A DNA stretch of 64,000 nt from Alphaproteobacteria bacterium (GCA_965225945.1 CBDDBZ010000037.1:1-64000); one strand, 5' to 3'. Positions 14,059 to 19,243 are shown, counted from the stretch's first letter. Notes: generated by a model not told the origin, from the letters alone. Translations and numbers: made by a program.

Positions 14059-14755
14059 CGTTTCCGTCCTCCCCGTCGGGAAATCCCTATCGAGCTTGGA
14101 TATGGGGCGTAACTGCGCGCCGTCCAGTCCCGGGACGGCGCCGGAGCCTGACGATCGCGTGAGCCGTGCCTGGGAGCCGTCAAATCTCCCCGGGCATGGC
14201 GGCGGCGGGGATCACGGCGCCGCGGTGGCCGATCACGCTCGCCGCCAGCCGGTGGCCCGCCCGCGCGGAGGCCTCGGGATCGCCGCCCGCCAGGCGCCGG
14301 GCCAGGTAGGCGGCATTGAAGGCATCGCCGGCCGCCGTGGTGTCGACAACCCGCGCCACCCGCTCCGCCGGAACTTCGAAGCCGCCTTCCGGCGCCTCGA
14401 TTCGACAAGGTCCGGGGCCGTTCTTGACCACGATCTCGGCCGGACCCTGGCCGGTGATCCGCCGGATGACGGCTTCCGCCGTCGCGTCGCCAAAGAGCGC
14501 CCGCTCGTCGTCGAGCGAGGGGAGCGCGATGTCGACCAGGGGATGGATCTCGGCCATCGCGCGGCGCGCCGCCTCGGGCTCGGGCCAGCCGCGCGGGCGA
14601 TAGTTGCTGTCGAAGGCGATACGGGTGCCGCCCGCGCGGGCAACCCGAAGCGTGTCGGTGGCGATGAAAAACCGCGCTTAGATGGTGATTTCAGCGACAT
14701 CGGGCATCGTGGCGCTGTAGCTGCGTGGTTTGCAGGCGGGAGTTGGCTCGGCGCA

Positions 14756-14823
14756 GCGGTGGGTAAGTAGCCCGCCGCAGCGACCGCCAAGAGTCTGGCG
14801 GCGGCGGGCTGCTTATCCACCGC
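14756..14823. other. 23-bp stem hairpin with DnaA-box-like TTATCCAC
   Basis: Arms 14756-14778 and 14801-14823 pair fully with two G-T wobbles. Confidence 0.7.
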
Positions 14824-15053
14824 GGGCGGGCGTCTCGATTCCTGTTTTGGCTGGCTGGCGGCGGCGGTTCCGCGGACCTGACAAGGGGAGCCGCGGGAGT
14901 ACACTCGGGCCGCTGAGAACGATGCGGCGCCGGCCCCGTTTGCTTGCTGGCAACGACCGGCACCGCACCCCCCGAGCCATGCAAGGCACGACCCATATGC
15001 GCAGTATCGTGCGGGTTTGGGCGTGGGTCCACCCCGTTCTCATCGGCTGCGCG

Positions 15054-15494
15054 ATGAAGAACACCGCCCGCCTGTTCAACTGCGCCTCGTGCCATCAACA
15101 GGTGGTTCTCTGCCGGCACTGCGACCACGGCAACATCTACTGTTCACGGAGCTGCAGCGATCGGGTGCGCCGGCGATCGCAGCGCCATGCCGGGCAGCGC
15201 TACCAGAACAGCCGGCGGGGCCGTCACAAGCATGCTGAGCGCCAGCGGCGCTATCGCGAACGCCGGCGGCGCCGGACGCCGGTGAATCGGCGCCGCGGGC
15301 AGGAAGTGACGCATCACCCTTTGACCGCCGCGCGGCGGCGTCCTGTTGTGGTGCGGACGCCGGCAGGGCGTCCCGGAACACGGCCCTTCGGGCACGAGCG
15401 GCCCGCCAGGGTCTTCCGCTGCGATCGCTGCGGCCGGTTCTGCGGGCAGGCGGTCTATCCGGGGCTGCGCCCGACGGGAAAGGGGGTGAGATGA
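15054..15494 (+). CDS. Cys-rich, Arg-rich putative Zn-finger protein inside the IS21-like element
   Basis: CASC, CRHC, CSRSC, CDRC motifs; basic helix; stop overlaps the istA start (ATGA). Confidence 0.75.
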
Positions 15495-16996
15495 CCATCG
15501 ACAAGGAGACCCGCGCGGAGATCCTGCGCCTGTATCACGTCGAGAAGTGGACGGTCGGCACGATCACACGCCAGCTCGGCGTGCATCGCTACACCGTCGA
15601 GCGCCTCCTCACCGCGGCCGGCGAGCCCCGGGACGCGAGGTCGCCCAGGCCGTCGATGATCGATCCATACGTGCCGTTCATCGCCGAGACGCTGGCATCC
15701 TGGCCGACGCTGCCCGCCAGCCGGCTCTACCAGATGGTGCGCGAACGCGGCTATCCGGGCGGCGGCGACCACTTCCGTCATCTGCTCAGCCACTTCAGGC
15801 CCAGGCCCGTGGCCGAGGCCTATCTGCGCCTCAAGACCCTTCCCGGCGAGCAGGCCCAGGTCGACTGGGGACACTTCGGCAAGGTGACGATCGGCCGCGC
15901 GGAGCGCCGCCTGATGGGCTTCGTGATGGTTCTCAGCTACTCGCGGCGGATCTTCCTGCGCTTCTACCTCGACGCCGGGATGAGCAACTTCCTGCGCGGC
16001 CATGTCGAAGCCTTCGAGGCGTGGCAGGGCGTGCCCCGCGAGCTCTGGTACGACAACCTGAAGAGCGTCGTGCTGGAGCGCCGCGGCGCCGCCATCCGGT
16101 TCAATCCCCGGATCCTCGACCTCGCCGGCCACTACCACTTCCTGCCCAAGCCCGTCGCGGTCGCGCGCGGCAACGAGAAGGGGCGCGTGGAGCGGGCGAT
16201 TCGCTATGTCCGGACCAGCTTCTTCGCCGCCCGCCGGTGGCGCGATATCGACGATCTCAACGCCCAGGCCCTGGCCTGGTGCCACGGCATCGCCGCCGAC
16301 CGCCCCTGGCCCGAAGACCGCTCGATCACCGTGCGCGAGGCCTTCGAGCGGGAACGCGGCTCTCTCATCGCGCTGCCCGGCGATCCCTTCCCCGACCACG
16401 ACCGGGTCGAGGTCGCCATCGGCAAGACCCCCTACGCCCGCTTCGATCTCAACGATTACAGCGTGCCGCACACCCATGTGCGGCGCACCCTCGTCGTGGT
16501 CGCGACGCTCGACGAGGTGCGCATCCTCGACGGTGTGGACGTCATCGCCAGCCATCCGCGCAGCTTCGACAAGGCGGCCCGCATCGAGAACCCCGAGCAC
16601 ATCGCCGAGCTGGTCAGGCGCAAGAGCCATGCCCGCCGCCTTCGCGGCCAGGACCGGCTGGTCCAGGCCGCGCCCAACAGCGAGCGCCTGCTCGCCGAGG
16701 CCGCCCAGCGCGGCGGCTATATAGGCGCCACCGTCGCCGCCCTGTTGCGCCTCCTCGACGCCTACGGCGCCGCCGAGCTCGAGGCGGCCATCGACGAGGC
16801 CCTGAAGCGGGACGTTCCCCATCCCAACGCCGTGCGCCTGAGCCTGACCCGGCGGCGCGAGCTGCGGCACCAACCCCCGCCCATCCCCGTCGAACTGCCC
16901 GGCGATCCGAGAGTGCGCGACATCACTGTCCGCGATCACGACCTCGTCGGATACGACGGGCTGGCCGGCGAACCCGAGGAGGACAGCGAGCAATGA
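15491..16996 (+). CDS. istA: IS21 family transposase IstA
   Basis: N-terminal [29 protein letters not shown]. Confidence 0.95.
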
Positions 16997-17785
16997 ACGA
17001 TACCCTCATGGGCCGTGCCCGGGCGCTCGGCCTGCACGGCCTCGCCGCCCACTGGGGCGAGGTCGCCGGGCATGACTGGCCCGCTGCGCTGGTCGCCTGG
17101 GAAGAGGAGGAACGGCGAAGCCGCAGCCTCAAGCGCCGCCTCGCCGACGCCCGCCTCGGACAGTTCAAGCCGCTCGCCGACTTCGACTGGGCATGGCCGC
17201 GCCGCTGCGACCGCATGGCCGTCGAGGATCTCATGAGCCTCGAGTTCCTCAACGAGGCCGCCAACGTCGTCCTGGTCGGCCCAAACGGCGTCGGCAAGTC
17301 GACCATCGCCGCCAATATCGCCCACCGCGCCGTCCTCGAGGGCCACACCGTGCGCTTCGCCACCGCGGCCAGCATGCTCGGCGAGCTCGCCGCCCTCGAC
17401 AGCGACAGCCAGGCTGCTTCAGCGCAGGCTGCGCTTCTACGCCCGCCAGCACCTGCTGGTGATCGACGAGGTCGGATACCTGTCCTACAGCAACCGCCAT
17501 GCCGATCTGCTGTTCAACATCGTCTCCAGCCGCAGCCAGCAGAACTCCACCATAATCACCACCAACCGGCCCTTCGCCGAGTGGGGTGAGGCCTTCCCCA
17601 ACGCCGCCTGCCTCGTCGCCCTGGTCGACCGCCTCGTCCACAACGCCGAGATCATCGCCATCGACGCCGAGTCCTGGCGCCGCAAGGAGGCCGAGGAACG
17701 CCAGAAGCAGCGCAGCGCCGAGCGCCGCCGGCGGCGAGCCGGCAAGGCCGGCGCGCAGGACCGCGGGGAACCGCCGCCGGCGTAG
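16993..17785 (+). pseudogene. istB: IS21 helper ATPase IstB, frameshifted near 17410
   Basis: GPNGVGKS before the shift; LLVIDEVGY, ITTNRPF, DRLVH after; one extra base. Confidence 0.9.
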
Positions 17786-17787
17786 CC

Positions 17788-18678
17788 ATGGATGGTCCCC
17801 GCCTCTGGGACCGGCGGGTGCGGGCCGAGGCCCTGCGAGGCTATCCCCTCGAAGACGTCGTCCGCCGCCTCGGCTACCGCCGCGATCCCACCGATGCCGC
17901 GCGCTGGAGGCGTCCCGGATCCGTCGTCAGCATCAACGGCTTTATGTTCTACGAACATCTGCGCGGCGAGGGCGGAGCGATCGACCTGGTAATCCATGCC
18001 TGCCGGTGCACCGTGCCCGAGGCCCTCGGCTTCTTCTCGGAACTGCCGTGCCGTGACCGGTTCCCGGCCGATCGCCACCCGAAGCCGCCGTGCCCGGACC
18101 GCCACTGGCCCGCCATCCAGAGCTACCTCGTCGAGCAGCGCGGCCTCGCGGATGTGCTCGTCGCCCTGTGCCGCGACCTCGGCTTGCTCTACGCCGACCG
18201 CCACGGCAACGCCGTGTTCGTCCGCCGAAACGCGGCCGGCGAGGCTCTCGGCGCCGAGATCGTCCCTGCCGCGGCGCCACGCCGCCTCGCGCCGACCGGC
18301 GCCGCCGCGCGCGGCGGCTTCTGGATGTCGTGGGAACCCGACTGGCCGAACTCCGTCATCCTCGCCAAGAACGCAATCGACGCCCTGTCGGTCCTCTCCC
18401 TCCACCTCGTCCCGGCCGGGCGCAAGGGATGCGCCGTGGTCTCAACCGGCGGCGCCACCGCAAGCCTCCCCGAATGGATCGAGGCCTGGAACCCCGGCCG
18501 GATCTTCTGCGCCTACGACGCTACCCGCCAGGGCGATGACGCCGCGGCACGGCTCATCCGAAACGACAGCAGGGTCGTCCGCCTGCGCCCTGCCCTCGAC
18601 GGCCTGGACTGGAACGACATGCTCATGCGCGACCGCGCCGGCGAACCGCTCCAGATCGATGACCGGCCCCTCGACTGA
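17788..18678 (+). CDS. Primase-like DUF3991/Toprim-domain protein inside the IS21-like element
   Basis: GGAIDLV, YLVEQRGL, NAVF, AIDALS, STGG, CAYD, DWND. The catalytic E and second D appear substituted (AKNAIDALS, YDAT). Confidence 0.75.
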   Translation: MDGPRLWDRRVRAEALRGYPLEDVVRRLGYRRDPTDAARWRRPGSVVSINGFMFYEHLRGEGGAIDLVIHACRCTVPEALGFFSELPCRDRFPADRHPKPPCPDRHWPAIQSYLVEQRGLADVLVALCRDLGLLYADRHGNAVFVRRNAAGEALGAEIVPAAAPRRLAPTGAAARGGFWMSWEPDWPNSVILAKNAIDALSVLSLHLVPAGRKGCAVVSTGGATASLPEWIEAWNPGRIFCAYDATRQGDDAAARLIRNDSRVVRLRPALDGLDWNDMLMRDRAGEPLQIDDRPLD

Positions 18679-19243
18679 ATAGCCACAGCGCGAAACAAAA
18701 TCAGCCAAGCCCAAAAGCATCCCGTCAGCCAACCGCCACCGACCGCTCAAAAAGAGCACCATATAAGCGCACCCTGGAACCACCGCTAACAAAGCGCCGC
18801 CAACAGGCGGGCCCGGCTGCCCGCGTCGAGGATCGAGAGGCTGATCAGGGTCAGATAGACGACGTCGTGGCGGGCCAGCGCCGCCAGGCGGGCCTCCGCA
18901 TCGCCCTCGGCGTCGGTCTTGACCGTGTGGAAGCCCGGAAGGCGGCCGGGAAGGCGCTCGACCAGCTCGGTGCCCACGCCCTCGGCCCGCCAGGCGGCCA
19001 CCATGTCGGCGCTGTAGGGATCGTCGCCGAGCGCGGTGACGTAGTTCACCCGCTGGCCGAGGCGGGCGAGATAGACGCTGGTGTTGAGGCTGTCGCCGCC
19101 GAAGCCGAGCGCCAAGCGGCCCGCGCCGCCGTCGACCAGCTCGATCATGCACTCGCCGATCGCGGCGAAGAGGGGCGCGCCATCCATGGCCCCTGAGAGT
19201 GCCCGCCGGCGGCGGCGGAGACAAGGCGGCGCTGGACGCGCTA

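Follow-up and report, generated by a model that had tools for sequence, protein, structure and literature searches.

The window, a stretch of 64,000 nucleotides from an Alphaproteobacteria bacterium (GCA_965225945.1 CBDDBZ010000037.1:1-64000), contains at positions 14653 to 18791 an insertion sequence of the IS21 family that carries two genes besides those for the transposase IstA and the helper ATPase IstB: a zinc-finger (Znf) gene upstream of istA and, downstream of istB, a gene for a predicted homologue of DnaG-type primases. Comparison with related sequences makes it reasonably probable that both are integral accessory genes of the element, and that the primase-like protein is non-catalytic in the clade of elements to which this copy belongs (hereafter the window clade). 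The two genes are placed in the transposition module because of their deep synteny, their coupling to the neighbouring genes, their position inside the ends of the element and their recurrence in a second transposon type, in which a DDE enzyme is likewise paired with an AAA+ helper.

Structure and mobility of the element

The four genes lie on the same strand and are tightly packed within an element that interrupts the gene for 2-dehydro-3-deoxygluconokinase (kdgK). The features are as follows.

14653–18791, plus strand: whole IS21-family element, 4139 bp here, 4141 bp in the consensus of 19 copies
14648–14652, no strand: left target-site duplication (TSD) AAGCG, 5 bp
14653–14687, plus strand: left end, with TGT tip and subterminal 14-mer GCGCTTAGATGGTG at 14674–14687
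14756–14823, plus strand: imperfect hairpin with 26-nt arms that are 88% complementary, in the 400-nt leader that precedes the Znf gene
15054–15494, plus strand: Znf open reading frame (ORF), 146 aa, outside known families
15491–16996, plus strand: istA, 501 aa, IS21-family DDE transposase (NF033546, 249.1 bits against a cut-off of 160)
16993–17785, plus strand: istB, AAA+ helper ATPase (PF01695 on both halves; 262 aa in the consensus)
17788–18678, plus strand: predicted DnaG-like primase homologue, 296 aa (298 in 12 of 19 copies), with DUF3991 (6.4e-9) and Toprim_2 (1.1e-4)
18757–18791, minus strand: right end, with ACA tip and subterminal 14-mer (reverse complement GCGCTTATATGGTG, 18757–18770)
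18792–18796, no strand: right TSD AAGCG, 5 bp
14180–14652, minus strand: 3' part of kdgK (NF052444 model positions 152–303, E 9e-48)
18792–19187, minus strand: 5' part of kdgK (NF052444 model positions 4–95, E 2.7e-32)

An earlier note on this DNA, made from the sequence alone, had described the AAGCG duplication, the TGT..ACA ends and the matching subterminal 14-mers, and all of these are present. The 14-mers are equidistant from both tips and agree at 13 of 14 positions. IS21-family elements have TG..CA tips, imperfect terminal inverted repeats and target duplications of 4–8 bp, and the tips, the subterminal match and the TSDs of 5–7 bp found here conform to this. The coupling of the genes is also as that note had it: the Znf stop and the istA start share an ATGA overlap at 15491–15494, the istA stop and the istB start share another at 16993–16996, and 2 nt (17786–17787) lie between the stop of istB and the start of the fourth gene, ATG 17788.

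The earlier note further held that all 4139 bp had moved as one unit into kdgK, and the host genome bears this out. The NF052444 model identifies the two flanking pieces as halves of one kdgK gene split by the element, and a contig from run X3 links 14647 directly to 18792, skipping 4144 bp (the element and one copy of the TSD). This joint is the uninterrupted kdgK site. The genome assembly (G000, 6.27 Mb in 39 contigs) holds 19 full-length copies of 4133–4166 bp that are 99.07–100% identical, besides 2 copies interrupted by small repeated elements and a number of fragments. Direct repeats of 5–7 bp without common sequence flank 15 of the 19 full-length copies, the other four having none, and the first 30 nt of the left end are the same in all 19. 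Because there are so many near-identical copies, with TSDs and an empty-site contig, the 4.14-kb unit is mobile in its entirety and has moved recently.

Damage to the genes is rare and scattered. No gene is broken in more than one copy, and the four breaks are all private: the Znf gene is broken in C33 (18 of 19 intact), istA in C25 (17 of 19 intact, C26 being unscored for a substitution in the anchor), istB in the window copy (18 of 19 intact) and the primase-like gene in C36 (18 of 19 intact). At least 14 of the 19 copies retain all four genes, apart from the one unscored for istA. The frameshift in istB reported by the earlier note is indeed there, caused by a 4-bp insertion at 17410–17413; an alignment of the 19 copies shows it to be unique to the window copy, and the consensus form without it occurs in contigs of all four public runs searched, so that it says nothing about the family. 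The window copy is therefore a slightly damaged member of a recently active, autonomous IS21-family insertion sequence. Two further polymorphisms separate the copies. An in-frame indel of 6 bp between 17964 and 17965, in the fourth gene, is present in 12 copies and absent from 7, including the window copy, and sits in a Gly-rich loop of the first domain of the encoded protein; position 14779 in the leader hairpin is A in 10 copies and G in 9. A repeat scan of the element returned chiefly GC-rich noise.

IstA has the HTH_23, rve and Mu-transpos_C_2 domains expected of an IS21 transposase, and IstB follows it immediately across the ATGA overlap. The element thus shares with canonical members (IS21, IS5376) the match to the same IstA model, a PF01695 IstB, overlapping istA and istB genes, the tips and the TSDs. 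The usual IS21 element is about 2–2.7 kb long and has two genes. The present one, by contrast, measures 4139–4141 bp and has four conserved genes, outside that two-gene size, the additions being an upstream zinc-finger gene and a downstream primase-like gene that both lie inside the ends and are conserved across lineages. We therefore file it as a variant IS21 subgroup, not as a canonical member.

The conserved Znf protein begins at ATG 15054 and not at TTG 14730, although the latter is the earliest start codon in frame. An N-terminal Cys cluster (C10, C13, C20, C23, C30 and C34) and a C-terminal group (C123/C126/C130) are separated by an Arg-rich segment; C10, C13, C23, C30, C34, C123 and C126 are invariant and C20 and C130 nearly so. 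The protein matches no Pfam or NCBIfam family, and its 218 homologous clusters are all unnamed. Its structure model (predicted local distance difference test, pLDDT, 73) contains an N-terminal knuckle, two long basic helices, a disordered linker and a C-terminal hairpin. It found no match in the PDB (the best was YacG, E 2.3), and an Atlas lead to zf-MYND scored 0.81, which is chance level. When compared by hhalign with the Cys-rich ORFs that come first in the deep IS21 lineage and in the IS481-like elements described below, the Znf protein aligned weakly (E 0.0074 with a probability of 5%, and E 0.12). Three runs predicting a complex of the Znf and primase-like proteins scored 0.45, 0.00 and 0.00 against a mark of 0.32 and have no bearing either way.

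Near-identical copies of the element also occur in contigs of runs X1–X16, from 8 studies, which include sponge metagenomes and two metatranscriptomic libraries. Contigs of the RNA libraries span the element (in X4 a single contig of 4171 nt), where carry-over of DNA is possible.

Some further observations concern the host genome, which is unusually repeat-rich. Two copies, at C18:73087 and C37:79541, both lie at one position of a repeat that numbers more than 50 copies, and they share the 7-bp TSD TGACGTT; their left flanks are identical over 984 bp and their right flanks over only 51 bp, and the pair represents either a hot spot or a duplicated composite. The interrupted copies carry inserts at C27:62270-62601 (a 332-bp repeat with 167 BLAST hits in the genome) and at C39:307800-308063 (264 bp, made of repeated pieces with 53 hits). 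Both inserts fall in the 5' part of the primase-like gene and may be elements resembling miniature inverted-repeat transposable elements.

The primase-like protein and its active site

The fourth protein is, according to its structure model and profile, a full homologue of DnaG-type primases without the helicase-binding tail, because its RNA-polymerase domain, the fold of its zinc-binding domain (ZBD) and its family profile all match DnaG. It consists of a Cys-less ZBD-like domain (about residues 1–88), DUF3991, which corresponds to the N-subdomain of the RNA-polymerase domain, and Toprim. Both Pfam matches pass their gathering cut-offs (DUF3991 36.6 bits against 24.5, Toprim_2 22.9 against 22.1). 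The top Foldseek matches of the model (pLDDT 80.5, predicted template modelling score 0.78) are all DnaG, T7 gp4, Twinkle or T4 gp61 (E 4.8e-5). When aligned with VIA-align, residues 92–295 superimpose on the DnaG RNA-polymerase domain of 2au3 over 187 residues (Z 12.4, root-mean-square deviation 3.6). Alignments with Z of 8 or more involve solely chains of the same four proteins, and proteins that have only a Toprim domain in common with it reach Z 5–6.6. The description of this ORF as primase-like in the earlier note is therefore borne out by the fold.

Residues 5–88 match the zinc-binding domain of DnaG (1d0q) over 82 residues (Z 6.4). The zf-CHC2 family gives no match in the protein even at E 10, and residues 1–88 contain no conserved set of Cys or His, which means that the zinc-binding fold is present and its zinc ligands are absent. 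About 15 residues follow the last Toprim helix, and the protein hence has no C-terminal helicase-binding domain. Its family profile matches E. coli DnaG (E 0.004), and the Glu and DxD of the family fall on those of DnaG. Like DnaG and the DUF3991-Toprim mobilisation primases of plasmids, it has the ZBD fold followed by an RNA-polymerase domain with Toprim; unlike them, it lacks the zinc ligands, the helicase-binding domain, the catalytic Glu and the second Asp.

The substitution of the Toprim Glu and DxD, to which the earlier note had drawn attention, is real and extends to the whole clade. The window copy has Lys for the catalytic Glu, and its DxD reads D-A-T. Residues were counted over the 120 best homologue clusters, after 5 gapped rows were dropped, in columns set by profile alignment to E. 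coli DnaG. Among the 87 clusters with at least 57% identity, Glu is found in 1 (K 38, G 19, A 17, D 5, N 4, R 2, T 1), the first Asp in 75 and the second Asp in none (T 83, S 2, P 1, A 1). The 28 clusters below 57% identity have Glu in 24, the first Asp in 27 and the second Asp in 24. All other transposon lineages aligned retain ES..D and DxD. A nucleotide-loop motif of the intact clades, F[KR]GMAPGS, is shortened or missing in the window clade. Among the transposon lineages examined, the catalytic residues thus appear to be lost only in the window clade. An alignment of 17 proteins, six of them from the intact group, nevertheless keeps 43 invariant columns.

Selection on the gene was assessed from the ratio of non-synonymous to synonymous substitution rates (dN/dS), a check that the earlier note had proposed. 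Calculated by the Nei-Gojobori method on extremely GC-biased codons and hence crude, the ratio for the primase-like gene is 0.45–0.59 in comparison with seven window-clade loci, where it is 0.31–0.47 for istA, 0.17–0.37 for istB and 0.36–0.79 for the Znf gene. Against the distant locus L057 all four genes lie at 0.45–0.77, with istB highest. The ratio for the primase-like gene is below 1 in all eight pairwise comparisons.

Because Glu and DxD are substituted throughout the clade while the ORF stays open, these sequences favour a dead, repurposed domain over decay. The elements seem first to have taken up a DNA-replication protein and later to have put it to another use. Of the two states between which the earlier note had hesitated, a decaying copy and a catalytically dead, repurposed domain, the second is therefore preferred. 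The 19 near-identical copies despite the dead active site also argue that primase catalysis is dispensable for the mobility of the window clade. Metazoan Twinkle offers a parallel, as it too retains a DnaG-fold domain with a degenerate primase site (Twinkle chains align at Z 10–11.2), and its primase-like domain is said to be catalytically inactive. The Twinkle domain is fused to a helicase, whereas the element protein stands alone. By analogy, a binding role in the window clade would probably resemble that of Twinkle's inactive primase domain.

Relatives in IS21 and IS481-like transposons and in plasmids

Homologues of the fourth protein form at least 180 clusters of near-equal length, many of them on contigs of about 4.0–4.3 kb, the size of the element. 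Loci were retrieved from species genomes (4) and metagenomes (67), and the four proteins were mapped on each. The window clade has 23 loci from other assemblies, with primases 61–70% identical to that of the window. Ten of these have Znf, IstA, IstB and primase in order (L011, L012, L013, L021, L023, L024, L025, L026, L037 and L040), five are cut by a contig end yet collinear (L014, L022, L028, L033 and L034) and eight are 5'-truncated remnants (L027, L029, L030, L031, L032, L035, L036 and L038).

More distant lineages share the arrangement in whole or in part. Locus L057, of which L058 is a contig-cut version, has the same four genes with an IstA 50%, an IstB 60%, a Znf 38% and a primase 40% identical to those of the window element. 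A deep IS21 lineage (L064, L068, L069, L070 and L079) has the order istA, istB, primase at identities of 25–29% for IstA, 26–34% for IstB and 35–37% for the primase, and in L064 and L069 a Cys-rich ORF precedes these genes. Between that ORF and istA the lineage has a ParB/KorB-like gene (L064:1127-2095, L069:2238-3134 and L068:74-973), which makes a five-gene IS21 element; ParB/KorB models match only in L064 and L069, the ORF of L068 having no family match. The Znf and Toprim ORFs are thus conserved components of one group of IS21 elements, by gene order in 10 of 23 loci and in further lineages, and the Toprim ORF is not the one-off passenger that the earlier note had named as the alternative. 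Clear ends were found by short-word BLAST only for L011 and L057 when the inverted repeats of distant lineages were sought. A class-wide search matched one of 400 other genomes, and there only a fragment of 40 residues; the element is either rare among species representatives or not assembled.

Two near-identical, 5'-truncated relatives with 64% amino acid identity occur in the host genome itself (L009, C30:9340-10134, and L010, C38:350-1144). Their primase-like gene is followed by an IS21-like right tip, ...CGTTAACA. Upstream of it, sequence on the opposite strand was read by eye as a putative tyrosine-recombinase gene. In the metagenome locus L072 an IstB fragment and the primase gene likewise come immediately after two Phage_integrase genes. 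In L066 a gene for an IS110-family transposase (588–1529) stands directly upstream of a truncated primase-like gene, where it has probably inserted into a further element of this kind.

The second transposon type is IS481-like. Loci L041–L044 encode, in order, a Cys-rich ORF, an IS481-like DDE transposase, an AAA_22 ATPase (ExeA/TniB-type), an AAA_25 RecA/DnaB-like ATPase and a primase. A block of 5.2 kb, 85% identical and set between different flanks, is common to L042 and L044 and ends about 70 bp past the primase stop. At L039 and L054 the AAA_25-primase pair stands at the contig start, and L049, L052, L053 and L055 have an rve transposase, AAA_22 and the primase. This arrangement gives the IS481-like element, about 5.2 kb in length, the look of a transposon equipped with a primase-helicase-like pair. 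Pairs of a primase and a RecA/DnaB-like ATPase occur in satellites and plasmids. As in primase-helicase modules such as T7 gp4, L041–L044, L039 and L054 have AAA_25 directly upstream of an intact primase, whereas the window element lacks such an ATPase, and no origin or initiator was identified.

The wider DUF3991-Toprim family counts 8166 representatives at E<=0.001 and is mostly plasmid-type, with stand-alone 'DUF3991 and TOPRIM' genes besides relaxase fusions. Only 2 longer homologues were found, one an IstB read-through and the other a MobV fusion, and 13 long representatives scanned among the 150 listed have MobA/MobL, Mob_Pre, DUF6908 or no extra domain, none of them IstA. Matches in PLSDB amount to 85 plasmid records, all at 36% identity or less; the primase homologue studied here differs from the plasmid ones also in being encoded inside a DDE transposon. 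One homologue (L077) follows the coupling protein of a type IV secretion system and another (L060) stands just after a Tn3-family transposase. The Tn3 link was rejected as incidental, as the similarity in its closest relatives, L062, L065 and L067, begins at the primase gene; the ORFs of L062 and L065 are longer, at 603 and 516 aa.

A quick maximum-likelihood tree was built with a short search from 34 rows of our choice and rooted on L060 and L077, with long branches flagged for L054, L057, L060 and L077. The transposon-linked primases form a clade in this tree (Shimodaira–Hasegawa-like approximate likelihood ratio test, SH-aLRT, 96), in which the deep IS21 lineage branches first. The window clade is represented by 15 rows, with a support of 100 and a long stem of 0.73. 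The sister clade nearest to it that is catalytically intact comprises P0089, P0096, P0098 and P0111.

Possible roles of the accessory genes

The earlier note had proposed that the extra ORFs act in transposition, for example in priming replication or in target choice. IS21-type elements are thought to need DNA synthesis, for tandem or circle formation or for cointegrates, and the helicase loader DnaC is a relative of IstB. If the Znf and primase-like genes are accessory genes of transposition, IstA and IstB would perform the chemistry and the capture of the target, and an intact ancestor of the primase-like protein could have primed DNA synthesis on the transposition intermediate, on the lagging or second strand and in a copy-out or replicative mode. 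Two other IS21 lineages and the IS481-like transposons, some of the latter with a RecA/DnaB-like ATPase alongside, would preserve this intact ancestral state. The protein of the window clade would be a non-catalytic subunit that binds DNA or protein and is maintained by selection; it may hold the single-stranded DNA of the intermediate or recruit host replication proteins or a transposition partner. The basic Znf protein, whose gene is translationally coupled to istA, probably binds nucleic acids as a cofactor or regulator.

A wider proposal is possible, though we put it forward as doubtful: these elements may belong to an undescribed class of DDE transposons that have a DnaG-like primase of their own as the last gene and are self-priming, the version in the window clade being non-catalytic and still serving the transpososome. 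The class would comprise several IS21 lineages and the IS481-like elements with an AAA+ helper, some of which would add a RecA/DnaB-like ATPase, a ParB-like protein or a zinc-finger protein. Its members would prime, and perhaps drive, copy-out or replicative DNA synthesis without relying on the host primosome.

Several results weigh against a role of the extra genes in transposition. The strongest is that the window clade multiplies with a dead site, so that priming cannot be the current role of its primase-like protein. In most comparisons the primase-like gene is also the least constrained of the four. No circle or tandem joint, linking the right end to the left end, was found in the contigs of 4 public runs, where such joints show poorly. 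Homologues of the Znf and primase-like proteins occur in the host genome only in the element's own copies and the two remnants of a relative. The same genome holds about 50 copies, counted by eye, of a second IS21-family element that looks canonical (e.g., C37:230331-232551 and C38:9132-11352) and whose IstA and IstB are about 31% and 35% identical to those studied here; no search was made for a primase gene beside them. Lastly, the wider DUF3991-Toprim family is mainly one of plasmid mobilisation and conjugation, with MobV, MobA and Mob_Pre fusions and a neighbouring coupling protein, and a function in DNA transfer unrelated to transposition is possible.

An alternative view is that the Znf and primase-like genes are passengers, as in a 'transporter IS', that serve a function other than transposition. 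This function might derive from plasmid mobilisation modules, for instance the handling of incoming single-stranded DNA, plasmid establishment or counter-defence. The dominance of relaxase-primase fusions and conjugative contexts in the broad family fits this view, and so do the presence of the second, very abundant IS21 element and the dispensability of primase catalysis in the window clade; a DUF3991 gene of a rhizobial plasmid is also listed as up-regulated together with tra genes (PMC13055273). We nevertheless regard it as rather unlikely, since the order and position of the genes are kept across IS21 lineages whose IstA proteins are 25–50% identical and again in IS481-like elements, the genes are translationally coupled and the primase-like gene always comes last before the right end. 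Moreover, the transposon-linked primases group together with support, separately from those that are conjugative or Tn3-adjacent, and no PLSDB plasmid has a homologue above 36% identity.

Loss of the active site could instead mean that the primase-like gene is a decaying relic, which lost its function with its catalytic residues and survives for no other reason than that the elements are young. The position of the catalytic Glu is indeed variable (K, G, A, D, N, R or T), the nucleotide-loop motif is missing or shortened, and the dN/dS of the gene is the highest of the four in most comparisons. Decay seems improbable, however, in a clade that spans 57–99% identity and at least 87 clusters with the ORF retained. 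Thr has replaced the second Asp in 83 of those 87, which is a new residue fixed and not one drifting; the invariant columns are shared with six intact proteins, dN/dS stays below 1 in every comparison, and 18 of 19 copies have an open ORF, a rate equal to that of the Znf gene and istB. It is more improbable still that the Toprim protein cuts or resolves intermediates, as a nuclease or another enzyme that processes strands (OLD-family, RecR-like or topoisomerase-like). Toprim domains do occur in nucleases and topoisomerases, and such proteins align at Z 5–6.6, but the match covers the whole RNA-polymerase domain of DnaG and the ZBD fold, bacterial DnaG and T7 gp4 chains reach Z 10–12.4 against at most 6.6 for Toprim-only proteins, and the metal-binding residues that a Toprim nuclease needs are the very ones lost. 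We therefore prefer to view the Znf and primase-like genes as accessory genes of transposition.

Full-text searches of the literature brought up no paper in which an IS21 element carries a primase or Toprim gene. What is new here is a subgroup of IS21 elements that has genes for a zinc-finger protein and a DnaG-like pseudo-primase, and that may have been catalogued earlier, for instance in ISfinder. The source of the DNA synthesis of IS21-type, copy-out or replicative transposons is poorly understood, and this step is assumed to be left to the host. A conserved transposon-borne DnaG homologue that is intact in some lineages and clearly dead but kept in another offers a direct handle on it. The IS21 family gains a subgroup of four to five genes, which automatic annotation will break into a 'transposase' and unrelated 'hypothetical' and 'toprim' genes, and the window clade adds a probable case of an enzyme turned into a pseudo-enzyme inside a mobile element.

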